Positions 1-12,166 of a stretch of DNA of 64,000 nucleotides are shown one piece after another. The notes below the pieces were generated by a model, which did not search any database, was not told the origin of the DNA, and was given only the letters and a program-made list of their open reading frames with translations. The position numbers and the translations under genes were made by a program. This DNA comes from Parcubacteria group bacterium. GTDB lineage: Bacteria; Patescibacteriota; Minisyncoccia; Phycocordibacterales; Phycocordibacteraceae. Where the stretch lies: the NCBI GenBank assembly GCA_028286605.1, contig JAQBRE010000002.1, forward strand, positions 60,219-124,218, in the 5' to 3' direction. How positions within the stretch are numbered: the first letter of the stretch is position 1; the number at the start of each line of letters is the position of its first letter.

Positions 1-597
1 GACTCCTTTTCGAACACCAATTAAATAACGACCTAGCTGAATCGCTATTTCAGCTGGCCGAATAGCCAAGACCAAAGTCCAGCCCCCAAGAATGGCAAAC
101 ATCCATCCAAGATTGTTCTGGTAAAAACCGAGAGCACTTATTATCACAACGGGCGTGAATAGCACTTCTCCCTTTCCGAGCACACTGCTCACGCGGTACG
201 CGATTTTACCGATGAGAGTATTTTGCTGGAACACAGCCACAAGCGCCGCAACGGCAACAAATATGGCCACGCAAACAGTCAGAGCATTCAAAAGCACTAA
301 GGCTCCATGGAAACGAACCACACTTGTGAAATCGAGTGGTGCCAGCAAAAGAACAACAGCTATTGCAGTACTTAGTGAGTCTCGAGGCGGAAGGAAGAAA
401 GGCGCAGCAACCAGAACAAGAAGCCAATATGCTGTCGCTGCGAGGAACCAGACACTGGCTCCAGAGCCCGTTGGGATAATTGAACCGGTCGCGAGAAAAA
501 AGAAGATGAGAGCTACGAAAACGTTTATGCCCAATGCTGCCATTCGCCACACTTGAGGCAATGGTTCGATCGGGCCAAGGTTTGAGGTTCCCTTCAT
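1..597 (-). CDS. Polytopic membrane protein, C-terminal part running off the window start (partial)
   Basis: Reverse-strand frame from ATG at 595-597 (MKGTSNLGPIEPLPQVWRMAALGINVFVALIFFFLATG...) stays open to position 1 and is strongly hydrophobic. Track ORFs 155..556(+) and 206..550(-) overlap it in other frames and have implausible composition. Confidence 0.55.
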   Translation of the reverse strand, partial: MKGTSNLGPIEPLPQVWRMAALGINVFVALIFFFLATGSIIPTGSGASVWFLAATAYWLLVLVAAPFFLPPRDSLSTAIAVVLLLAPLDFTSVVRFHGALVLLNALTVCVAIFVAVAALVAVFQQNTLIGKIAYRVSSVLGKGEVLFTPVVIISALGFYQNNLGWMFAILGGWTLVLAIRPAEIAIQLGRYLIGVRKGV

Positions 598-678
598 GAA
601 GGTAAGAGTATCACCGCTTCCGCAGCACGCCAGAGCACATATTTCGCGCATGAACGCTATTTATGAGTAGAGAAAAGC

Positions 679-900
679 GACATGCCTAAAAACTAACGTT
701 TAGCTAGTAAATAGGGCATATATTCTGAAAACAGCATGTCGCACAACGTCTCTTCCTCGCGCGCGAGGATATGGGGCCGAACAGAATCGGACATGGCCAA
801 AACTAAGCAATAGATAATAAATAAGGCACATATCGGAAAAACACCGTGTCTGATTCGGTCTCTTTTACGCGCGTATGGGCAGAAAAGCGGCATTCTGAAC
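679..900. repeat. Diverged tandem duplication, two units of ~111 nt (679-789 and 790-900), each with an internal GC palindrome
   Basis: Both units start gacatgcc.../gacatggcc... and align at roughly 70% identity. Unit A contains CCTCGCGCGCGAGG and unit B contains TACGCGCGTA. Lies between two minus-strand genes. Confidence 0.5.
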
Positions 901-1008
901 CTCGCCAAAAGCGAAGTTGTTCAAAATCAGTTTATACGCTTTAGGTAGGCCATATTGCCCTAAAGGACACTTCGCCTAACTTCGCTTTTCCTCGCGTAAT
1001 GGAAGTTG

Positions 1009-1785
1009 CTACGATCCGAAGCTGCCTACCCATGAACCACCCTCTGGCCGGCTACAGACAACCTCGAGACTGCGCGGAACCTGAGTACCACTAGCGAAGC
1101 GAGTACCGTCAGACTTCGTGAACTGGCCCTCCGGAACGACCATTGAATCCATCGTTGTATCTGTCGTCGTGCTCGTACCCTTGAGGCCTGTGGGCGTGTC
1201 GATAAAGTCGAGATGCGTGGTGTACGTATCATTGAGCTTTAGATCGCAGTCGTTCCATTCGAACGAATTGAGATTCTTGATCGTGATGACGGGACTATCG
1301 CCTTCTTGGCTGTCTCCCATCGCCAGACCCAGTGTGCTGATGTGCACACCGAGGTTCATGTCTTCTTTTGGAGCAGTCGATACGTACGCACCCTTCTCAG
1401 GTGGAGCGGTAGCTACCCATGCGATGACAGCAACGATCAGCAGAACAATAACCACTGCAAAGCGCTGCGTCTGGCTGACAGTACGTCCGATCTTCTTCTC
1501 AAGGAACGGGACGGTTGGCGGCATCAATGCTCCCGCTGCGAGGATGTAGAGAATCCCTGCCAGAGGAGTGGTCGTTAGTGATGTGAACCCTGTAAGGAAA
1601 AGAACGATTGAGATGACCCAAAAGGCCAGCTTCAGAGGGCCCGTGTCGCCCTGGTTTTGCCCCGTGTGGGCTTCTGTGGTGGTAACCATACTCTTGATCG
1701 CGAAGTAGGTGGGTAAGCCTGCCAGAGCCTTTGTGTACGCAAAGATCCCGACAGGGGCATACCGGTTTCCCGATACGGCGATCAA
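1009..1785 (-). CDS. Hypothetical membrane-anchored / secreted protein
   Basis: 258-aa ORF with two hydrophobic segments near the N-terminus and a Thr-rich extracellular tail. No recognisable catalytic motif. Confidence 0.55.
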   Translation of the reverse strand: MIAVSGNRYAPVGIFAYTKALAGLPTYFAIKSMVTTTEAHTGQNQGDTGPLKLAFWVISIVLFLTGFTSLTTTPLAGILYILAAGALMPPTVPFLEKKIGRTVSQTQRFAVVIVLLIVAVIAWVATAPPEKGAYVSTAPKEDMNLGVHISTLGLAMGDSQEGDSPVITIKNLNSFEWNDCDLKLNDTYTTHLDFIDTPTGLKGTSTTTDTTMDSMVVPEGQFTKSDGTRFASGTQVPRSLEVVCSRPEGGSWVGSFGS

Positions 1786-1938
1786 GCGAACCCCCTGCCG
1801 GGGTCTTTACGCTTGATCGACTTCTAGCGCCATGCCAGCGTTTCCGCTGGTTTAGGCTCATATTCAGTTGTCTAAAAAGGTTAGCATCCTATGTGAACCC
1901 TTACCACTCCTTGATGTTTCTTTAGGAAAAAGCATAGA

Positions 1939-2661
1939 ATGCGACTAATGGCCCGCGGCAGACAATATGAAGGGGTGGTTGTGCTGCAAAGACTCCTCGA
2001 GCAGCGCCTTAACGATTCAAATCATCAAGCGCTCTATTTATCCTATGAGGATCTGGCAAACTTTAGCCCTCTTTTAAAAGAGCCAATGGGAGTGGAGAAG
2101 TTTTTTGAGGTCATACAGAACGAGACCAACAAAAATATCACCTACAAAATAAAGATTCTACGGAAAGCCCTGCCCCACAGAGCCGGTAATGAAGCTGTAT
2201 ACCCTCCCCTTTCTGATCCGTCACCTGTCGGCATAGACGTGCACGTCTCAGATCTGCAGATGCTAAAGAATTATTTTGAGTGCGCGCGTTCAAAAGATGG
2301 CGCTGGAAAATCTGCTTTGAACAAAATTATGTCGATTGATATCGTGCCACGCGTGGAAGACTCAAAAGCTGTGATCGTTATAAATGGGAAACCCAACAAA
2401 GATCCTTTGATTATAAATATGGATGGGAAACTATGGAGTAGCTTGATTGAAGTAGCTCAGAGGGGTAGTGCGAATCCCGAAGATGTAAAAGACGTGTCAG
2501 ATTATTTCAATAAAAATAAGAAGTGTCCTATCTACAAAGAGGGGTACGAGCTAAGTGAAATCCTTGTGCCCGATCACGGCACCTTGCGCGCAGGACCAGG
2601 AGTAAAACTTTCAATGCGTACGAAGAAGTATTTGTCTCAGAGAAGAAATAATGTAGCTTAA
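1939..2661 (+). CDS. Hypothetical protein (island cargo)
   Basis: 240-aa ORF in the AT-rich block with no recognisable motif. A weak hairpin plus T-run follows at ~2700-2730. Confidence 0.5.
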   Translation: MRLMARGRQYEGVVVLQRLLEQRLNDSNHQALYLSYEDLANFSPLLKEPMGVEKFFEVIQNETNKNITYKIKILRKALPHRAGNEAVYPPLSDPSPVGIDVHVSDLQMLKNYFECARSKDGAGKSALNKIMSIDIVPRVEDSKAVIVINGKPNKDPLIINMDGKLWSSLIEVAQRGSANPEDVKDVSDYFNKNKKCPIYKEGYELSEILVPDHGTLRAGPGVKLSMRTKKYLSQRRNNVA

Positions 2662-3158
2662 AAAAGCTTAAAAGTGGATAACCATTTGGAGGAACGAAAT
2701 CACCTATAGAAAGTGGGTGGTTTTTTATTTCATAGAAACGTGATTAAGCCTTCTTCACTTGGAAGCATGGGTGAATGGCACCTGTCGAGACATCCGAGAA
2801 AGCTTCCCAAAAAGCAGTCGATCTGTTTCTCGACCGCCTAGTAGAAATCTTGCTCATGCAGGTTGAGCAAGATTCAGAAACACAAGCAGAGGTAGTCAGC
2901 GGATCCTCTAAATAAAATTGGCTGCAACTTATTGGTGGGTAGATATCAGTCCTCGCTCTGGGTGAACACTTCCCAACGAGGCACCTTATCTGCCCGTCAG
3001 TAAAACGAATGGAGCACTCTTTATCAGACAAAGATTCAGGAAACAAAGGGACCTGACTGATTGAAAGAGCATCTAGCTTGTGTACTCATATTGTTGGTTA
3101 TTTAGATTTCCAGTGCCCATAAGGGAAATAAAAGTGCAGATAAGAATTGTAAACAATT

Positions 3159-3371
3159 ATGAAAAAACGAAAGAAGACACTGCAAGAAATTGCTACACGC
3201 GAATTGAAAAAGAGTTCGCAGCGTTTCAAGCCTAAGAGAAAAACTATTCTGGTGCGCATTCAGTCTAAATGGCGCCGACACCTTAAGGAGAGAGCACGGG
3301 CCAGAAGCCTGACACTCTCGAAGCTCCATGACGAAATATATCCTCATTACTTCAAGTGTGAGCGTTATTGA
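3159..3371 (+). CDS. Small basic protein (K/R-rich, 70 aa) immediately upstream of the recombinase; possible DNA-binding accessory factor
   Basis: MKKRKKTLQEIATRELKK...; its stop is next to the recombinase gene. Preferred over the overlapping minus-strand ORFs, which are Cys-rich and low-complexity. Confidence 0.35.
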   Translation: MKKRKKTLQEIATRELKKSSQRFKPKRKTILVRIQSKWRRHLKERARARSLTLSKLHDEIYPHYFKCERY

Positions 3372-3502
3372 ATCCAGATGTAAGAAGTAGTCAAAGTTAT
3401 CCCCTACTCGCTCTGCGGCACCCTGAATTAAGGGTTGCACAGGGGCACTTCTTGTCGCTATCGAGAGTAATTAGCTTGATAATTAGTTATATAAACCATC
3501 TT

Positions 3503-5107
3503 ATGAAAACAGCACTTATTTACTGTCGCGTGAGTACCGATGAGCAAGCCGAGAGCGATCATTATTCGCTTGGGACACAGCTGGAGCTTTGCGAGCGCGC
3601 CATAGAGACTCACAATGATTACCGTCTCGCTGACGAAGGGAAATACGAAGACCCAGGACGAAGTGCCACTAACATGAGCAGGCCAGGCCTGCAGGATTTA
3701 CTTCTGCGCGTACAAGAAGATAAAAAAGTAGGAGCAGTCTTCGTGCAGGACACTGACAGATTGGCGCGCAACGTGAATGATCACATGATAATTAAGGCGC
3801 TTCTGAAGAAGCATGGGGTGGAACTAATCTCCGTATCACAACCAGGGCTTGAAGACACTGCCGAGGGCAACTTAATGGATGTAGTCATCGCTGGCATTAA
3901 TCAGTTTCAATCACAGATAACTGCGCGAAAGACGATGAAGAGCCTTGAGCAGAAGTTCCGTGACGGAGGCTGGCCAACGCGCGCAGCACCTGGATACCTT
4001 AACGTTGAAGGAACAGGTGGTGAAAAGCATCGCGTTGTTGTACTTGATCCAGAGCGTGCGCACTTCATTACAGAAGCCTTCAAGATGTACGCGACTGGCG
4101 ATTACTCCGTTATAGCCGTTAGGGACGCGATCACGAAGCAAGGATTTAGAACCCGCACGGGTAAACATCTTGCCCATAGCAAGATGACGACCTTACTGCA
4201 AAACCATTTCTACTACGGAGAAATGCGTTGGCGTGGACTCGTGGGGCCGGGTAAGCATGAACCACTTATCGACCGTGACACGTTCGACCGCTGCCAACTT
4301 GTTGCGAAGCAGCACCGAGGCAACAGGTGCAAGCGAGGTAAGTTCAACTTTATACTTCGCGGCTTCGTGTCGTGCGGCCTGTGCGGTTACCGCTATACAG
4401 CGGAACATCACCCCAAGAAGGACAAGTCTTACTACCATTGCAGTCATTATGGTAATCGAAAAGAAGCAGGTGATGCGGGGAAATGTGCAGACCGCTACGT
4501 GGAAATAGGCGATCTCGAAGGACAGGTGCAAGCTCACTTCGATAGGATTCAGTTTTCAGAAGAGTTTGTGAGCAAGATTGAATCAAGACTCCAGCATGTT
4601 TACAAGGCAAAGCGTGATTCGGTAAGCCAAAATAAGAAGCGCCTTCAAAAGAGCAAGGAAGCATTACAAGACAAGCTCGGAGTTGCCGAAGAGAAACTGA
4701 TTACAGGCGTGCTAGATGACCAGGGCTTTACTCGCCTCAAAGCCCGCTACCGCGAACAAATAGAGGGAATAGAAGACGAGCTGTTCAGACTAGATCGTTC
4801 CAAGAACATCAAAGTAGATGTAATTCAGCAAGTACTGGCACTGGTGCGCGATATAGGCACGACCTACAAGAAGGCACCGCCCGAACTACAACGTCTCTAC
4901 CTAGGCCTATTCTGGGAGGGTTTTGTAGCGCAGAACCGTCTCATCACTAAAGCTAGCAAGTCCCCTATCGTAGAGGCTGTGGAGGCCGTAGGAGCGATAT
5001 CTTATCGCGTCCTACGAAGCGCACCAGCAGAGCTGGAAACAGAAGTAGGAACCGAAGTTATATTAAGCACCGTTAGGGGCGGCCACCGGGAATCGAACCC
5101 GAATTGA
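3503..5107 (+). CDS. Large serine recombinase (resolvase/invertase-type catalytic domain, recombinase domain, zinc-ribbon)
   Basis: Start taken at MKTALIYCRVSTDEQ (catalytic Ser motif) rather than the TTG at 3368. A Cys/His cluster (CGLCGYRY...HHPKKDKSYYHCSHY) is typical of large serine recombinases. The C-terminus ...RGGHRESNPN is encoded by tRNA-His sequence. Confidence 0.9.
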   Translation: MKTALIYCRVSTDEQAESDHYSLGTQLELCERAIETHNDYRLADEGKYEDPGRSATNMSRPGLQDLLLRVQEDKKVGAVFVQDTDRLARNVNDHMIIKALLKKHGVELISVSQPGLEDTAEGNLMDVVIAGINQFQSQITARKTMKSLEQKFRDGGWPTRAAPGYLNVEGTGGEKHRVVVLDPERAHFITEAFKMYATGDYSVIAVRDAITKQGFRTRTGKHLAHSKMTTLLQNHFYYGEMRWRGLVGPGKHEPLIDRDTFDRCQLVAKQHRGNRCKRGKFNFILRGFVSCGLCGYRYTAEHHPKKDKSYYHCSHYGNRKEAGDAGKCADRYVEIGDLEGQVQAHFDRIQFSEEFVSKIESRLQHVYKAKRDSVSQNKKRLQKSKEALQDKLGVAEEKLITGVLDDQGFTRLKARYREQIEGIEDELFRLDRSKNIKVDVIQQVLALVRDIGTTYKKAPPELQRLYLGLFWEGFVAQNRLITKASKSPIVEAVEAVGAISYRVLRSAPAELETEVGTEVILSTVRGGHRESNPN

Positions 5108-5150
5108 CAGAACCACAATCTGTAGTGTTAACCGTTACACCATGGCCGCC
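5077..5150 (-). tRNA. tRNA-His (GTG) with G-1:C73
   Basis: Reverse complement folds as a cloverleaf with a 7-bp acceptor stem, anticodon loop TTGTGGT and T-loop TTCGATT. The extra 5' G pairs with C73, as is diagnostic for tRNA-His. Confidence 0.9.
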
Positions 5151-5203
5151 ATGCAACGCACTGATATCCGTATCATGCGCACGTACGCACCATATAGATA
5201 TCT

Positions 5204-5287
5204 GGTGCCCGAGAGAGGACTTGAACCTCCACGCCTTGCGGCACATCCACCTCAAGGATGCTTGTCTACCAATTTCAACACCCGGGC
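5204..5287 (-). tRNA. tRNA-Leu (GAG), long variable arm, CCA encoded
   Basis: Acceptor GCCCGGG/CTCGGGC, anticodon loop TTGAGGT, variable arm tgccgcaaggcg, T-arm gaggttcaagtcctc, 3' ACCA. Confidence 0.85.
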
Positions 5288-5331
5288 AGGTGACCCTTGC
5301 GGGATTTTTCCACTATACGGAATCTGAGAGC

Positions 5332-5369
5332 AAAAAGAAAGGGCCGCTCGAAGAGCGGCCCTTTCTTTT
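5332..5369. terminator. Bidirectional rho-independent terminator (serves rplS on the minus strand)
   Basis: aaaaagaaaGGGCCGCTCgaaGAGCGGCCCtttctttt: a 9-bp GC stem flanked by A-run and T-run. Confidence 0.7.
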
Positions 5370-5384
5370 ATCAAACTGCGCAGC

Positions 5385-5948
5385 TTATTCTGCTGCCGCT
5401 TCTGCCGGAGCTTCCTCCGTAACCTCGACGGTCTCTACTTCTGCAGCCTCTGGCTCGCCAGCGACTTCTTCTGCAAGAGCCACCTCCTCACCTGCGGGGT
5501 TCTGGATAGGATCCTTTTCCATGACCTCCTCCACCGCGACTTCCTCGGCCACGACAGGCTCTTCCTTGAAGTCGTCCGTAGACATCTTCACCATGCGCAT
5601 GTTGCGAAGCTGGCGACGTACTTCACGGGCAACCTTCTCGCGGATGAAGTAGAGCTTCGCGCGGCGGACCTTCGAACGGCGGACGATCTCGATCTTCGAG
5701 ATGAACGGGGCGAATAGTGGGAAAATACGCTCAACGCCGACACCCGACATAGTCGCACGAACGGTGAAGGTAGCGCCTGCTTCCGTGCCGTGCTTAACCG
5801 CGATAACGAGGCCTTCGAAGACCTGCGTACGGCTCTTGCCCTTCTCGACGATGTTCTGGTGCACGCGGACCGTATCGCCTGGGCGGATGCCAAGACCGGT
5901 ACGTTCAGCGGTTTTTACCGGGGTTATAACAGAATTCATAGTAGGCAA
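5385..5948 (-). CDS. rplS: 50S ribosomal protein L19 with an acidic C-terminal extension
   Basis: Core ...[32 protein letters not shown]...TFTVR...GVERIFPL...[11 protein letters not shown] matches the L19 signature. The tail is E/A-rich. Confidence 0.9.
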
Positions 5949-5997
5949 AATCTAACACACGCCTTATATAAAAGCAAAATAGGCCTCTTCAGGAATC

Positions 5998-6729
5998 CTA
6001 TATAAGCCCTTCAGTATTAGGGAATTTAGCTACTGCGGCCTTGAAGACTTCAGGAATCGGTGAGGTCAGGGTGATGCGTTCGCCAGAAGGCAGCGGAAGG
6101 TCTAGCTGGTAGGCATGGAGACCAAGACGCTTGAAGCCGAGGTCACAGGGATGATTCGGCGAATAGAGCGGATCGCAGACTATGGGGTGATGAATCGCCT
6201 TAAGATGCACGCGAATCTGATGCGTGCGGCCGGTCTCTGGCATCATCTTTACGAGGCTGTGGGTACCGATATCGCCGACCACTTCGTAATTCGTAATCGC
6301 TTCGCGCAGCATGCCTTTGGCACCGCGCTGTGCGGAACGCAAGCGGAAATCAGTGCGCGAACGCCCTATAGCAAGATTAATCACTCCCTTCTCCTCCTTA
6401 AGCACGCCGTACACGAAAGCGAGGTAGGTCTTGTTCACGGTGTGTTCCTGGAATGCGAGCTTAAGGAACGCGTGCGCTTCAGGCGTCTTGGCGAGTATGA
6501 GCACGCCGGAGGTGTCGCGATCGAGACGATGCACGATGCCGGGGCGCATGATTTCAGAGCCATCACGCATGCGCTGCGTCTCCCCCACTTCTTTCGAAGC
6601 GGGATATTTCACAGCGAACCAGTCGCTGACGGTCTCCTCTTTCGAGTGACCATCCGGGTGCGCCATGACGCCGATAGGCTTATCTATGGCCACGAGGTTC
6701 GCATCTTCATATAAGATAGGAAAATCCAT
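5998..6729 (-). CDS. RluA-family 23S rRNA/tRNA pseudouridine synthase (no S4 domain)
   Basis: HRLDRDTSGVLILAKT catalytic-aspartate motif and overall RluA-family layout. Confidence 0.85.
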   Translation of the reverse strand: MDFPILYEDANLVAIDKPIGVMAHPDGHSKEETVSDWFAVKYPASKEVGETQRMRDGSEIMRPGIVHRLDRDTSGVLILAKTPEAHAFLKLAFQEHTVNKTYLAFVYGVLKEEKGVINLAIGRSRTDFRLRSAQRGAKGMLREAITNYEVVGDIGTHSLVKMMPETGRTHQIRVHLKAIHHPIVCDPLYSPNHPCDLGFKRLGLHAYQLDLPLPSGERITLTSPIPEVFKAAVAKFPNTEGLI

Positions 6730-6791
6730 ACCGGCAGCCTAGCATATATGGCCTTTTCTCGGGTATAAAAATGAGGTATGGTATCCAGTAC

Positions 6792-6864
6792 GGGCGATTA
6801 GCTCAGTTGGTAGAGCGCTTCATTTACACTGAAGATGTCGGGGGTTCGAGCCCTCCATCGCCCA
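6792..6864 (+). tRNA. tRNA-Val (TAC)
   Basis: GGGCGATTAGCTCAGTTGGTAGAGC... anticodon loop TTTACAC, T-loop GGTTCGAGCCC. Confidence 0.9.
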
Positions 6865-6870
6865 CAAATG

Positions 6871-6900
6871 AAAAAACCGCAGCGGGGCTGCGGTTTTTTC
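6871..6900. terminator. Rho-independent terminator after tRNA-Val
   Basis: aaaaaaCCGCAGCggggCTGCGGttttttc. Confidence 0.65.
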
Positions 6901-6929
6901 ATTTGTGCACTTCCACGTATTTCTATCTG

Positions 6930-7011
6930 TGCCGTGGGAGGGACTCGAACCCTCAACCCTTGCAGGATACGCTTCTGAGGCGTACGCGTATACCAATTCC
7001 GCCACCACGGC
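6930..7011 (-). tRNA. tRNA-Leu (CAG), long variable arm
   Basis: Reverse complement GCCGTGGTGGCGGAATTGGTA...TACGCCTCAGAAGCGTA... anticodon loop CTCAGAA, long variable arm, T-arm GGGTTCGAGTCCC. Confidence 0.8.
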
Positions 7012-7027
7012 ATATGCATCATTCTTG

Positions 7028-7099
7028 TGTCCCCACCAGGAATCGAACCTAGATCTACGGCTTAGAAGTCCGCAGCTTTATCCATTAAGCTATGGGGAC
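7028..7099 (-). tRNA. tRNA-Arg (TCT)
   Basis: Reverse complement GTCCCCATAGCTTAATGGATAAAGC...CTTCTAA...GGTTCGATTCCTGGTGGGGACA. The anticodon stem has one A-G mismatch. Confidence 0.75.
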
Positions 7100-7108
7100 T
7101 TCTAAACA

Positions 7109-7489
7109 CTAGCTCGCGGGTGCAGCAGGGTCAACGACGCGTGTCGTCGTGCTTGTAGGAATGCTCGCAGGTGTTGCAACCGGTACTGTGGGATTCGACG
7201 GATCGACGAAGTGCGAATTCTTATAGTTTGTTTCGGTAGCGGCACGACTCTGGAAGAGCGTGTTCACTGAATCGATCGATGCAGGGTTGAGCGATTGCTG
7301 CACCGTTGCGGTGCCGATCGCGTCGCCATTCGTAACGCGCAGGAACAGCCAGACATTCCATCCGATGCTTGCGATAAGGAGTACAGTCGCGATAGCAACG
7401 AGCATGAGCCAGTCGCGCGATGGATTCAGCCGATCGCCATACCGGAATGGATTCGATGCGCTTTTAAATTTTGGGAGGGAGAGATTCAT
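7109..7489 (-). CDS. Membrane-anchored protein, last gene of the pilM/N/O-like operon (possible pilus-assembly accessory protein)
   Basis: Start set at MNLSLPKFK... (ATG 7487-7489, overlapping the stop of the upstream gene). Single TM then an extracytoplasmic Thr/Pro-rich tail. Confidence 0.45.
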   Translation of the reverse strand: MNLSLPKFKSASNPFRYGDRLNPSRDWLMLVAIATVLLIASIGWNVWLFLRVTNGDAIGTATVQQSLNPASIDSVNTLFQSRAATETNYKNSHFVDPSNPTVPVATPASIPTSTTTRVVDPAAPAS

Positions 7490-7490
7490 A

Positions 7491-8060
7491 TTATTGGGTA
7501 GGGTCTGCTGCGGGCGCGGGTGCCGGGGCGACATGCGGCGTGCTGCTTGCAGGGCCAGTGCCCACACTGAAGGATGCCGCCACAGACCAGTTCCCTGGCG
7601 AAGCTGTATCGAGCGAAAGATTCTTAAGCTTTATATCGTAGGGCGCGTATTCGAGCGCACCAAGGGTGCGCTCTACTGAATCGAACGTACCGGAAATAGT
7701 AACGGAGAGGTTCAGATGACTCTGACCGGCAGTAGGCGCACTGTCTGCACCAACAGAAACAACATCTACCTTTGAACCGAGGGCTGCACCCGTTGCGGTT
7801 AGGCTGCCAAGAAATGGAACGACATCGTTCGCAGAAATGAAGTGTGATGAAACAGATGATTCATCATCTGAGAGTGCGGCGAGTGCGGCTTTCGCCTCAG
7901 CGATACGCGACGCATCCTGACTCTTGGTCTCAATTTCCCCGGCAATCGAACGGGCTTTCGCATTCTCTGTATCGACCATCACGAACCATACGCCGTAGGC
8001 TGCAACCACAATGACAAGCGCGATACCTGCGAACATAAGATGGATCAAGGGTTTTTTCAT
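7491..8060 (-). CDS. Type IV pilus assembly protein PilO-like
   Basis: N-terminal TM (LIHLMFAGIALVIVVAAYGVWFV), a coiled region, then a periplasmic domain. Position and size fit PilO in a pilM-N-O arrangement. Confidence 0.55.
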   Translation of the reverse strand: MKKPLIHLMFAGIALVIVVAAYGVWFVMVDTENAKARSIAGEIETKSQDASRIAEAKAALAALSDDESSVSSHFISANDVVPFLGSLTATGAALGSKVDVVSVGADSAPTAGQSHLNLSVTISGTFDSVERTLGALEYAPYDIKLKNLSLDTASPGNWSVAASFSVGTGPASSTPHVAPAPAPAADPTQ

Positions 8061-9711: not shown

Positions 9712-10461
9712 TTAGTGCGCCGCAGTTCCTGGGGGAACCACGCGATCGGGTGTAACGAAGGCGAACGTGTCCCCTTCTCCCACCGCGAAGAGCATGCCAT
9801 TCGATTCAATGCCTTTTATCTTGCGAGGTTCGAGGTTCGTAACGAAGGCAAGCTGGCGGTTGATAAGATCTTCTGGTTCATTCACGTATGCACTGATGCC
9901 TGAGACGACCTGACGCGGTCCGGCTGCTTCGCCGAAGTCCACGGTGAGTCGCAGGAGCTTGTCTGTTTCCGGAACGCGTTCAGCGGTACGCACCGTGCCT
10001 ATCTTCACTTCGATCTTCAGGAACTCATCAATGCTGATCTTCGGTTTTCCTTGCGGCTGAGGTACTTCGGGTACCTGGCGCGAGAGGAAGCCCGTGAGAA
10101 TGAGTGCAGCGGCGGAAGAGTCCACGTCAGGGCTGCCTTTCATGCGCACGCCTTCGAAATCACGGCGTGCTTCCTGCGTCGTGAACATTTCAGGTTCGAA
10201 GTGCACAGGCATGCCGCCTTCGGCGAGGTGCGCGGCTACGCCGCGCACCTCTTCCATCACTGCATTATCCTCGCCGTTGAAATCCTTCGAGTCCCCCATA
10301 ACGACGGCCTCGACTTTTTCCTTCGCGATTAGCGCTTTTAGAGAATCAAGCAAGCAACTGTCGTTCAGCATGACGCTGTGCGGAAAACCCATCGTGCCGG
10401 CTTCATCCGAAAGCGCGATACCCACCTTCTTCGTTCCATAATCGATACCCATATATTTCAT
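9712..10461 (-). CDS. Fusion of YqgF/RuvC-like pre-16S rRNA nuclease (N-terminal) with an EMAP/Myf-type tRNA-binding domain (C-terminal)
   Basis: N-terminus MKYMGIDYGTKKVGIALSDE is the YqgF signature. C-terminus IDEFLKIEVKIGTVRTAERVPETDKLLRLTVDFGE...GMLFA matches the tRNA-binding OB-fold domain found in MetRS C-termini and CsaA. Confidence 0.75.
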   Translation of the reverse strand: MKYMGIDYGTKKVGIALSDEAGTMGFPHSVMLNDSCLLDSLKALIAKEKVEAVVMGDSKDFNGEDNAVMEEVRGVAAHLAEGGMPVHFEPEMFTTQEARRDFEGVRMKGSPDVDSSAAALILTGFLSRQVPEVPQPQGKPKISIDEFLKIEVKIGTVRTAERVPETDKLLRLTVDFGEAAGPRQVVSGISAYVNEPEDLINRQLAFVTNLEPRKIKGIESNGMLFAVGEGDTFAFVTPDRVVPPGTAAH

Positions 10462-10497
10462 AGAATCATCCTACCAGACGTGATACCATGCCGACAT

Positions 10498-10788
10498 ATG
10501 AACACCATAGCTTCCAATCCGATACAGCAGCTCGCTACCCTGGCAGGCGTTTCTCTGCCCGTCATGACCGGCATTCTTGCCGCCGTCGCCATATGGACGA
10601 TCATCTGGAAAGGTCTTGGCATGTGGCGTGCCGCACGTAATCATCAGATGGTCTGGTTCCTCGTATTCCTTATCGTTAATGACATCGGCATCCTCGAGAT
10701 AATCTACCTGCTCTGGTTCAGAAGCGACAAAGACGCTATGGTAACTCGGGTCGCCACTGGTTCAGCCGTGGTGCCTGAAGCGCAGTAG
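10498..10788 (+). CDS. Small membrane protein (two TM segments)
   Basis: Start moved to ATG 10498 (MNTIASNPIQQ...) because the track ORF start overlaps the yqgF-like gene. Hydrophobic segments LPVMTGILAAVAIWTIIW and MVWFLVFLIVNDIGILEIIYLLWF. Confidence 0.5.
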   Translation: MNTIASNPIQQLATLAGVSLPVMTGILAAVAIWTIIWKGLGMWRAARNHQMVWFLVFLIVNDIGILEIIYLLWFRSDKDAMVTRVATGSAVVPEAQ

Positions 10789-10800
10789 CAAAAAATAATT

Positions 10801-10887
10801 GGAGGGGTGGCAGAGTGGTCTATTGCACCTGTCTTGAAAACAGGAGTCTCTTTACGGGGACCGCGAGTTCGAATCTCGCCCCCTCCG
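10801..10887 (+). tRNA. tRNA-Ser (TGA), long variable arm
   Basis: GGAGGGGTGGCAGAGTGG... anticodon loop CTTGAAA, long variable arm, T-arm GCGAGTTCGAATCTCGC. Confidence 0.85.
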
Positions 10888-10944
10888 CATCTGAATGTGT
10901 TAACGTGCGCGCTCGAAGAGTGCGCACGATGCTATCATTACGTC

Positions 10945-11418
10945 ATGAATCGCACGCCTCTTTATGAGTGGTACGGGACGGAATATGTTTTTGAAGAGAA
11001 AGGCGCCGACTGGTACTGGGCACTCGGCATCATCGCGCTCGCAGCCGTCGTTGCCTGCGTGCTTTTCAATAACCTTCTGCTCGGGCTCGTGATACTTGCT
11101 GCAGCAGGCACCCTTGCGCTCATGGCAGCGAAGCATCCGCGCACGCACCACTTCATGATCTTCGACACGGGCGTAGGTATTGATAACAACTTGTACCTGT
11201 ATCAAGACATGGTGGACTTCTCAGTCCTTGAATATTTAGACGAAACGCTGCCTCCTGCCCTTTCCATAAAGACGAGCCGCATCATGGCGCCGCACATCCT
11301 GATTCCTATCGTCGATCATGATCCGGTAGAAATATACGAATACATTTCGCTGCACCTTCCCGAGGGCATGCACGAAAACTCACTGATGGACCATTTCATC
11401 TCGCTTCTGAAGATTTGA
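10945..11418 (+). CDS. Hypothetical membrane protein
   Basis: Start moved to ATG 10945 (MNRTPLYEW...) because the track ORF begins inside tRNA-Ser. Two TM segments. Confidence 0.55.
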   Translation: MNRTPLYEWYGTEYVFEEKGADWYWALGIIALAAVVACVLFNNLLLGLVILAAAGTLALMAAKHPRTHHFMIFDTGVGIDNNLYLYQDMVDFSVLEYLDETLPPALSIKTSRIMAPHILIPIVDHDPVEIYEYISLHLPEGMHENSLMDHFISLLKI

Positions 11419-11472
11419 TTTGCAAATAGGCCGCGTAAACGATACAGTCAACTTCGTGCGGGGTGCTTAACT

Positions 11473-11547
11473 GCTCCCGTCGTTCAATGGATAGGACGTA
11501 TCCTTGCGGAGGATATGATGTAGGTTCGATTCCTACCGGGAGCACCA
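11473..11547 (+). tRNA. tRNA-Arg (GCG), CCA encoded
   Basis: GCTCCCG...anticodon stem TATCC/GGATA with loop TTGCGGA, T-arm GTAGGTTCGATTCCTAC, acceptor CGGGAGC-A-CCA. Confidence 0.7.
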
Positions 11548-11552
11548 GTAGC

Positions 11553-11584
11553 AAAAAGCCGCCGATTTCATCGGCGGCTTTTTG
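11553..11584. terminator. Bidirectional rho-independent terminator
   Basis: aaaaAGCCGCCGAtttcaTCGGCGGCTtttt. Confidence 0.65.
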
Positions 11585-11596
11585 CGTTCGTTCTAA

Positions 11597-12166
11597 TTAC
11601 TTCGCTGCGATCGAGTTAATGAACGTGTCGGTGATAGTCGTATCGCTCGTCGTACTCTTCAAGAGGAAGTTGTAGGTGCCATCGCTTTCCTTGATAGAAA
11701 AGAGCTGATAATACGCGAATTGTGCAGATGGCTTCGTGTATGTTTTCACTTCAACGCTTTGTCCTGCGATGGTGCGCGTTCCGGTCGTGTACGTAAGATC
11801 GTTAGAAAGCCCGATCGCTTCATTCTTACTGACGAAGATTACGAGCGAGCCATTCGAGATCTGCATCTGATGCAGCTGATTGTTCGCGTCAAGGATTTCG
11901 TTCACATTCCACTCGGGACGGAGATGAAATGAAACCTTCCAGTTCTTGTCTGCGAAGATACCGCTCGAAGAGACTGAGCTGTTGGTGAGAACGCCACTTG
12001 GAATAAGGCCGGCGGAAGTGCTGCTGCCAATACTAAGAAGTGGCGATGTCACGGATGCAGGAGTGATGGGCGCATGCAATAGACCTAGCGTTATGGCTAG
12101 CGATGTAAGGGCCGCTGCGAGCTTTGAAAGTATGGTTGAAAGTATCGTCATGGGGACAGTATACAA
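11597..12166 (-). CDS. Hypothetical secreted protein (signal peptide)
   Basis: N-terminal hydrophobic signal MTILSTILSKLAAALTSLAITLGLLHA followed by a Ser/Thr-rich mature region. Confidence 0.55.
   Translation of the reverse strand: MYTVPMTILSTILSKLAAALTSLAITLGLLHAPITPASVTSPLLSIGSSTSAGLIPSGVLTNSSVSSSGIFADKNWKVSFHLRPEWNVNEILDANNQLHQMQISNGSLVIFVSKNEAIGLSNDLTYTTGTRTIAGQSVEVKTYTKPSAQFAYYQLFSIKESDGTYNFLLKSTTSDTTITDTFINSIAAK

Follow-up and report, generated by a model that had tools for sequence, protein, structure and literature searches.

The tRNA islands of the P4 and Islander types have variable cargo and, at the end next to the tRNA gene, the gene of a tyrosine integrase; the tRNA itself is restored by DNA of the element. 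The SSV1-type archaeal tyrosine integrases also target tRNA genes, with their attachment site attP located inside the int gene, which is whole only when the element is excised. To our knowledge, an attP site inside an int gene is known only for these SSV-type tyrosine integrases. The mycobacteriophages BPs and Brujita, which use tyrosine integrases as well, display integration-dependent immunity, with attP located inside the repressor gene. The serine integrases of phages and integrative and conjugative elements (ICEs), such as those of phiC31, Bxb1, TP901-1 and A118/LI, are composed of a resolvase catalytic domain, a recombinase domain and a zinc ribbon, in that order, and they use short pseudo-palindromic attachment (att) sites, with few bases shared by attL and attR. 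Here we describe a serine integrase and its element in a 64,000-nt stretch of a Parcubacteria group bacterium (assembly GCA_028286605.1, contig JAQBRE010000002.1, positions 60,219 to 124,218), hereafter called the window. We consider it likely that a 12,250-bp integrative element is inserted in this chromosome at the 3' tip of the tRNA-His gene, by a serine integrase whose open reading frame (ORF) spans attP.

This locus shares the domain order and the short pseudo-palindromic att sites of the phage and ICE serine integrases. However, its target is a tRNA 3' tip that is regenerated rather than disrupted, and its attP is inside the integrase ORF, such that the last 35 residues would change on integration. 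It resembles the P4-type and Islander-type islands by the position of the integrase gene, the restoration of the tRNA by element DNA and the variable cargo, but the recombinase belongs to another family. In addition, the block of identity between the att sites is 4-9 nt long (at most 18 nt in distant relatives) rather than tens of nt, and there is no detectable displaced tRNA fragment, only the 6 nt GGGGCG being repeated. With the SSV1-type systems, this locus shares a tRNA gene as target and an attP located in the integrase ORF. Nevertheless, the SSV split separates large parts of the protein, whereas only the C-terminal tail is exchanged here, with the catalytic and DNA-binding domains remaining intact. 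Finally, as in BPs and Brujita, the C-terminus of an element protein would differ between the free and integrated states, the altered gene being that of the repressor in those phages and that of the serine integrase itself in our case.

Serine integrases were excluded from tRNA targeting by Hudson et al. (2015), and tRNA is never mentioned in the large survey of serine integrase targets by Durrant et al. (2022). According to a review of integrative and mobilizable elements (IMEs; PMC5704250), site-specific serine recombinases integrate within genes and disrupt them. An integrase gene reading into a tRNA, which an initial sequence-only reading of this locus had called a classic signature of integration, is classic for tyrosine integrases. 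Our full-text literature searches found no later description of tRNA-targeting serine integrases; large island databases may hold cases that went unremarked. What appears to be new here is a serine integrase with a tRNA 3'-tip target and with attP inside its own ORF, as the searchable literature assigns this target to tyrosine integrases only.

The integrase gene starts with MKTALIYCRVSTDEQ. Pfam analyses identified an N-terminal catalytic Resolvase domain (PF00239, E 7.4e-27, residues 4-157), followed by the Recombinase (PF07508, E 6.4e-14, residues 183-266) and Zn_ribbon_recom (PF13408, E 4.1e-9, residues 284-344) domains, which is the order found in serine integrases. In serine integrases, a coiled-coil motif inserted in the zinc-ribbon domain controls directionality; residues ~350-450 of this protein are helix-rich, as judged by composition. 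The protein matches the integrase family phrog_95 of PHROG (E 7e-85). Residues Y7, R9, S11, D85, R86 and R89 are invariant in an alignment of 46 family members, R9 and S11 being catalytic. The catalytic domain has remote similarity to the TP901-1 integrase (3bvp, E 1e-11), and the recombinase and zinc domains align weakly with the C-terminal domains of the A118 integrase (4kis and 6dnw, E 2e-4). Based on Pfam, this is the sole recombinase of the element, in which no tyrosine recombinase was found. Relatives in the viral contigs of IMG/VR are at most 31% identical, and no phage form was detected among them. Judging from its domain content and the anatomy of its sites, the enzyme is a genuine large serine integrase (LSR).

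The ORF list, ARAGORN and Rfam all support the initial observation that the recombinase ORF (3503-5107) ends inside the 3' part of a tRNA-His gene on the opposite strand. The tRNA itself was correctly recognized, but its coordinates are 5076-5149 according to ARAGORN instead of 5077-5150, in agreement with Rfam (5078-5149, minus strand, 59.4 bits). Including its stop codon, the integrase ORF covers the 3' 32 nt of tRNA-His in antisense (5076-5107). The protein ends with ...VRGGHRESNPN, whose last eight residues, GHRESNPN, are encoded by the tRNA-His antisense strand.

We fetched 80 loci coding for relatives of the integrase (labelled L###), and we collected protein homologues (labelled P####) as the best 120 of 699 matches, nearly all of them from Patescibacteria and 41-80% identical to the integrase. 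The integrase ORF reads into an opposite-strand tRNA in 54 of the 80 genomic relatives and overlaps a same-strand tRNA in none of them, which shows that the overlap is not due to chance. All relatives with at least 50% identity that have a tRNA at the ORF end have tRNA-His there, and more distant relatives target tRNAs for Asn, Glu, Arg, Leu, Gly, Ala, Lys, Ser, Met or Phe. The hosts of the relatives include Patescibacteria, Melainabacteria, Verrucomicrobiota, Bacteroidota, Actinomycetota, Chloroflexota and Acidobacteriota, including cultured strains of Larkinella, Parafilimonas, Flavobacterium and Actinomadura.

Similarly, 57 of the 120 best homologues end in peptides that correspond to a T arm read backwards (..RGAYRDSNPN, ..GDRWDSNPQQPVPQTGALPIELRPP), and 28 more stop at a conserved ..(R/W)G(G/A) motif, which brings the tRNA-type or core-ended proteins to 85. 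This motif corresponds to the tRNA-His end, comprising the acceptor stem, C73 and CC(A), read in antisense. The codons GTT ATA TTA (V-I-L) found upstream of it are fixed in nucleotides and distance in the window and in loci L003 and L005-L010. Conservation of both the nucleotides and the spacing points to a site in the DNA, not to a motif of the protein. The P-arm motif GTTATATTA has the same codons and spacing in all these loci. In locus L019 (6881-7107), the integrase ORF has a tRNA-like end (..NWLRGQDSNL) at which ARAGORN detected no tRNA. Rfam identified a group I intron (75 bits) 19 nt downstream of the ORF end on the opposite strand, and thus the target is probably an intron-containing tRNA gene.

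The right end of the element, attR, consists of the P-arm motif, the core GGGGCG and the B' arm (Table 1). The core corresponds to positions 75-70 of tRNA-His and is identical to that of attL, and the B' arm contains the T-loop sequence ATCGAAC (5092-5098). We read the left flank from the Logan contig SRR13312974_702754 (run SRR13312974), which is 100% identical to window positions 1-5112 and extends 9 kb to the left of the window start. Its gene order agrees with that of the 532-kb contig from which the window was taken, where JWM39_66 and JWM39_77 are the NCBI locus tags of an SDR dehydrogenase gene and of the gene for a 240-residue protein that we call p240, respectively. The left end is 7,174 nt to the left of window position 1, and the SDR dehydrogenase gene has its stop codon 35 nt before it. 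The contig reads ctcgtaataaacgGGGGCGagaggggtgcgggTTATATAACcgatt at this end, and the junction ...aaacgGGGGCGagaggggtgcgggTTATATAAC. The integrase-tRNA junction with the same core reads GTTATATTAagcaccgttaGGGGCGgccacc.

Three features identify this site as attL. First, its 6-nt core is the same as that of the integrase-tRNA junction. Second, in the 14-kb contig stretch examined, the inverted P-arm 9-mer has a single match with at most one mismatch, the P' motif TTATATAAC at attL, which mirrors the integrase's own P motif at 8 of 9 positions. Third, an open 35-codon piece, GERGAGYITDYLSILSDPEYMAGIKEKLGLIASYSK followed by a stop codon, is in frame with the integrase across the attL core. The similarity between attL and attR begins exactly at the core, as expected if attL is made of B and P' and attR of P and B'. 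The element bounded by the two att sites is 12,250 bp long, and window positions 1-5081 are its right 5.1 kb. The reconstructed attP reads GTTATATTA-AGCACCGTTA-GGGGCG-AGAGGGGTGCGGG-TTATATAAC, and the reconstructed 60-bp junctions are AGATACGGGCCATCTCATCAACTCGTAATAAACGGGGGCGGCCACCGGGAATCGAACCC for attB (SDR flank and tRNA-His 3' end) and GAAGTTATATTAAGCACCGTTAGGGGCGAGAGGGGTGCGGGTTATATAACC for attP. The core GGGGCG matches the unusual acceptor sequence of this host, other hosts having GGGGTG. No copy of the tRNA-His 3' end was detected in window positions 1-8000 or in the 14-kb Logan contig using exact seeds, three mismatches or blastn-short, as expected with a core of only 6 nt.

The Logan contig breaks 5 nt after the integrase stop codon, inside tRNA-His. 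We considered whether its end at window position 5112 reflects heterogeneity due to excision and rejected this, as the same contig crosses attL unbroken. The break is likely better explained by tRNA tracts or k-mers common to other organisms in the metagenome.

Four other elements were delimited among the relatives, each with the integrase tail split off in the same way. Those at tRNA-His have an identical attL/attR block of GGGT (L004, 11,178 bp; L010, 9,583 bp) or TGGGGT (L011, 10,768 bp), and that at tRNA-Asn has ATTGGCTCC (L014, 9,362 bp). Thus, including the element of the window, identity blocks of 4-9 nt are found at the tRNA 3' end in five elements, and in the more distant L016, L036, L052 and L081 the blocks begin at the tRNA 3' end and are 12-18 nt long. 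The tRNA-His blocks intersect at positions 71-74, which points to a crossover dinucleotide in this interval. The five reconstructed attP sites and two intact ones (L163 and L287) contain inverted 7-mers of the GTTNNAW type located 33 nt apart, with the core in the centre. An attP of ~50 bp with an imperfect dyad and a short common core is what characterizes serine integrases.

The T-loop sequence GTTCGAW in the B' arm is located 11 nt from the centre, whereas the GTTNNAW motifs of P and P' are 15-16 nt away from it. In structural work on the A118 integrase bound to DNA, the distal half-site motif is reportedly nearer the centre in attB than in attP. The universal T-loop GTTCGAW is probably the distal recognition motif of the B' half-site. 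If so, this would explain how integrases of this clade moved between tRNA species.

In its attP form the integrase has 561 residues and ends with ...VRG-ERGAGYITDYLSILSDPEYMAGIKEKLGLIASYSK. Family members without a tRNA fusion have C-terminal tails (..LEDFEYMASLKEQLRLIKQ..) to which the 35-codon orphan piece at attL is homologous. This piece resembles intact tails of type 2 (..EYM..KEKL..), as opposed to those of type 1 (VVEDVRT..), and it is 55-70% identical to the orphan tails of L163/L164, L004 and L010 (E 3e-6 to 7e-4). L014 also carries a homologous orphan piece. When four orphan tails are compared, synonymous changes alone account for the differences at 7-11 of 20 codons, and the nucleotide identities are 55-65%. 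Such synonymous-only differences indicate that the peptide is under selection, which in turn implies that the elements must spend time in the attP form. Furthermore, P0058, with an intact tail, is 93% identical to the tRNA-fused P0051.

We propose that in the free, presumably circular form of the element, attP would be inside the integrase ORF, and the full-length 561-residue protein would be produced. The P arm would end in the same nucleotides as the 3' end of tRNA-His, with strand exchange occurring at a dinucleotide within positions ~71-74. Integration in this direction would regenerate the tRNA, and the integrase would keep residues 1-526, followed by eight tRNA-antisense codons. The 35-codon tail would be left 12.25 kb away at attL, beside the SDR dehydrogenase gene and outside the window. 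The intact integrase and the displaced tail, still open and typical of the family, make a decayed remnant unlikely, contrary to what had been envisaged at first. The element may still be active.

Some integrases that are 92-96% identical have unrelated tails of type 1, type 2 or other types (P0110 versus P0114 and P0116; P0071 versus P0069). This implies that the left ends of elements may have been exchanged by recombination at the common core. Type-1 tail peptides (VVEDVRT...) are absent from the genome of the window and were found only in L011. In L163/L164 (GCA_022843665.1, JALHNG010000031.1), an integrase gene with an intact type-1 tail (10001-11641) coexists with an orphan type-2 tail (539-628) located 9.4 kb upstream. 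The 8.7-kb contig of P0018, which encodes an intact-tail integrase, was considered as a possible circle, but it has no terminal overlap and is not demonstrably circular.

Several observations weigh against an element inserted by site-specific recombination as proposed here. Intact-tail integrases are found in chromosome-like contigs with no tRNA nearby (L163-L166 and L287), which may reflect different elements arranged at a single site in tandem or chimeric arrays. The half-site symmetry places the crossover at positions 72-71, which in this genome gives the palindromic dinucleotide GC that would not fix the orientation; GG at positions 73-72 avoids the palindrome but makes the half-sites less symmetric. 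The B arm, i.e. the flank downstream of the tRNA, contains no recognizable half-site motif, and no directionality factor, which serine integrases need for excision, was identified. attL is outside the window and comes from a second assembly, possibly made from the same reads as the first. Lastly, neither an empty tRNA-His site nor a circular form with attP was found for this element, and its mobility thus rests on comparison. A search for the empty-site pattern in the JGI metagenomes gave no match, genes related to the SDR gene of the left flank (70% and 57% identity) are not syntenic and have no tRNA nearby, and exact look-ups of the host flank proteins L19 and RluA and of p240 (as P0121) found them not to be on record.

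Nevertheless, the foreign origin of the element, as initially proposed, is supported by composition and by the incongruence between integrase and host similarity. Using same-size stretches of window positions 5150-64000 as the host baseline, the GC content of the AT-richer block upstream of the integrase gene (1860-3400) is 0.426, lower than in any host stretch (minimum 0.437), that of positions 1860-5075 is 0.463 (host minimum 0.469), and that of the whole element is 0.486 (minimum of the 12.25-kb host stretches, 0.497). Compared with the window, L008 has 67% identity for the integrase, 54% for L19 and 42% for RluA, and the corresponding values for L005 are 51%, 67% and 51%. Integrase similarity is thus incongruent with host similarity, which indicates horizontal transfer. 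The integrase is also the only gene common to the five delimited elements, whose cargo differs. Together, this incongruence, the variable cargo and the low GC content of the element argue against an ancestral resident gene.

Might the orphan tail have been left behind as a scar by an earlier element, or another one, of a tandem or nested array, with the integrase's own element being shorter and its left end unrecognized or deleted? The L163/L164 locus indeed shows that mixed arrays exist, and near-identical integrases do carry different tail types. However, there is a single integrase gene and no internal attP-like junction within the 12.25 kb, the P' motif mirrors the integrase's own P motif, and the core matches the unusual acceptor sequence of this very host. 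We thus regard a scar as improbable.

A minimal integrative element or decayed remnant of ~3.3 kb, from position ~1860 to the tRNA and with p240 as its sole cargo, was the suggestion of the sequence-only reading, and it is very unlikely. The GC dip does start at ~1860, and a block of 3.2-4.3 kb composed of a variable first gene, those of the small proteins p46 and p70, and the integrase gene is found between the gene of a LOOT RNA and tRNA-His in the window, L003 and L008. Nevertheless, the search for a second partial tRNA-His copy or att-like repeat near 1800-1950 was negative, and positions 1700-1940 contain no core repeat, inverted half-site or tail-coding piece. The conserved DNA there corresponds to the LOOT gene and the p240 promoter region, and in L014 LOOT is well inside the att-bounded element. 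The complete attL, with its matching core, half-site and in-frame tail, is 7.2 kb further left. A candidate P' arm at 1897-1919, with 14 of 23 matches to the inverted P arm, was rejected, since it has no shared core and no tail coding and is located on the conserved p240 promoter.

Finally, a domesticated recombinase vertically inherited beside tRNA-His, with an incidental overlap and nothing mobile, would account for the local gene order being the same in three genomes of Parcubacteria and for the absence of a long att repeat and of an empty site, but it is highly implausible given the incongruence with host markers, the wholly different cargo of elements that have only the integrase in common, the attL/attR pairs that bound 9-12 kb segments in five genomes, the protein-level constraint on an untranslated orphan tail that is still open, and the near-identical integrases found in both intact-tailed and tRNA-fused forms.

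Beyond this integrated element, a broader and more tentative proposal, which we consider rather doubtful at this stage, is that of a large, multi-phylum clade of tRNA-using serine integrases with a T-loop half-site and attP in their own ORF, for which integration would be a built-in molecular switch and, in Patescibacteria, LOOT a regulator of the recombinase modules. The integrase made by the free element would be full-length and have a conserved C-terminal helix (..L.D.EYM.G[IV][KR]EKL..), and that made after integration would be tail-less and tRNA-fused. The two forms could differ in stability or in their bias between integration and excision.

Reviews and island-finding software treat tRNA genes as targets of tyrosine integrases only. 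If our findings are confirmed, island predictors miss the elements described here, since their repeats are only 4-9 nt long. Serine integrases with half of attB made of a universal tRNA segment could also serve genome engineering, and a C-terminus that depends on the integration state would represent a new, testable coupling of state to activity. This is also one of few delimited integrative elements in Patescibacteria, which are hard to study.

The LOOT RNA gene (Table 1), divergent from that of p240, is carried by the element. It occupies the same position in L003 (7969-8088), L008 (1441-1559) and L163 (8006-8122), and the L014 copy is at 7195-7310. The stems show compensatory changes among five copies. 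Conversely, 29 of 80 LOOT-bearing metagenomic contigs (L167-L246) encode a serine recombinase, and in 22 of the ~37 contigs with enough flank, the recombinase gene is divergent and 220-3900 nt from the 5' end of LOOT. These recombinases are of two kinds, those of ~425 residues encoded directly adjacent to LOOT and LSRs of ~500-550 residues whose genes read into tRNAs. Searches for pairing between LOOT and the transcripts of the module found only 9-nt matches, which is the chance level, and this mode of action was not retained. LOOT, which has had no function so far, is thus tied to mobile elements, and a regulatory role, if true, would be its first functional context.

Table 1. Features of the right part of the element and its tRNA target, in window coordinates
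Feature	Position	Strand	Basis or remarks
Membrane-anchored HerA/FtsK/TrwB-type P-loop ATPase, 744 aa, 5' part	1..651	-	Gene runs to -1583
Intergenic repeats, ~3 degenerate copies of a ~110-nt unit	652..1008	.	Families D1, D2 and D4, spacing 108-123 nt
p258, predicted membrane protein	1009..1785	-	ORF list
LOOT RNA gene (Rfam RF03000)	1747..1858	-	60.8 bits vs gathering threshold 46.4, E 6.6e-10, full model 1-121
Promoter-like site for p240, TTGATG-18-TAGAAT	1911..1940	+	Consensus match only
p240, two-domain protein	1939..2661	+	ORF list; AlphaFold2 model
p46, small conserved protein	2775..2915	+	52% identical homologue in L008; similar 64-aa ORF in L003
p70, K/R-rich small protein	3159..3371	+	Homologues directly upstream of the integrase gene in L008 (51%) and L003 (43%)
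Large serine recombinase (LSR), integrated form, 534 aa	3503..5107	+	Pfam, PHROG, alignment to solved integrases
attR	5057..5098	.	P-arm motif GTTATATTA (5057-5065), core GGGGCG (5076-5081) and B' arm
tRNA-His(GTG), integration target, intact after integration	5076..5149	-	ARAGORN

From left to right, the element encodes a 64-aa ORF, a HAD hydrolase, a 140-aa ORF, a ParB-like protein, an HNH-repeat protein, a 79-aa membrane protein, a 161-aa ORF, an Imm26/DUF7674 protein, a HerA/FtsK/TrwB-type ATPase, p258, LOOT, p240, p46, p70 and the integrase. The 240-aa and 70-aa ORFs noted at the outset are thus present, but p240 is not alone as candidate cargo: it belongs to a module with p46 and p70, and LOOT and ten other genes are found further left. 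PHROG scans of 14 of the 15 element proteins, including the 140-aa, 161-aa and other small ORFs, revealed no capsid, portal, terminase or tail genes, matches being restricted to the integrase, the ParB-like protein and the P-loop ATPase. No relaxase or type IV secretion genes were recognized among the element proteins.

The ATPase matches Pfam DUF87 (E 1.7e-9), HerA_C and TrwB_AAD_bind at threshold, and the PADLOC HerA models with E values down to 9e-27; its match to the large terminase subunit of PHROG is limited to the P-loop region. The presence of a ParB-like protein and of a membrane HerA/FtsK-type ATPase suggests a plasmid-like or conjugative way of life. The repeats that follow the ATPase gene contain a 12-nt perfect inverted repeat (907-918 and 978-989), and they are possibly iterons, an origin or an RNA. 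p258 has no Pfam, PHROG or PADLOC match. As the longer ORF overlaps LOOT, translation probably starts at the ATG at 1689. A membrane protein is also encoded at this position in L003, L008 and L163.

The p240-p46-p70-integrase block, preceded by LOOT and a divergently placed membrane protein gene, recurs in L008; in L003 and L163, which share its layout, the first position is taken by other proteins of 214-230 residues. We regard this block as a conserved integrase-proximal module, presumably regulatory, rather than as an element of its own. The p240 homologue of L008 is 34% identical, and the CATAGAAT box of the promoter-like site is conserved there. We found 53 relatives of p240 among 1.84 billion representative proteins, with only weak winged-helix hints. 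Its AlphaFold2 model has two domains (pLDDT 91.7) and no significant fold match in the PDB. The family searches proposed for the two proteins yielded no Pfam, PHROG or PADLOC match for p240 and only a sub-threshold CopG_antitoxin match (E 0.09) for p70. The latter is possibly a ribbon-helix-helix DNA binder and, judging from its position, we would guess a regulator or directionality factor.

Directly upstream of its integrase gene, L008 harbours a 174-aa ORF with a resolvase domain (3645-4169, plus strand), 39% identical to the integrase N-terminus. By eye, rather than in a formal alignment, an alanine appears to occupy the position of the catalytic serine (YCRIASLHQ versus YCRVSTDEQ). This protein could represent a paralogue that is inactive, or a regulator.

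In L003, the region left of the LOOT/integrase module (5044-6414) codes for a reverse transcriptase of 325 residues with a YADD motif and for a divergent 134-aa ORF. The cargo of L163/L164 includes genes for RVT_1, DUF4238, Mrr_cat and TerB_N proteins. Defence-like cargo thus seems common in these elements. On the host side of the window, the ribosomal protein L19 (5385-5948, minus strand) has a very acidic C-terminal extension of ~70 residues rich in E, A and V, and a similar extension is present in L008.

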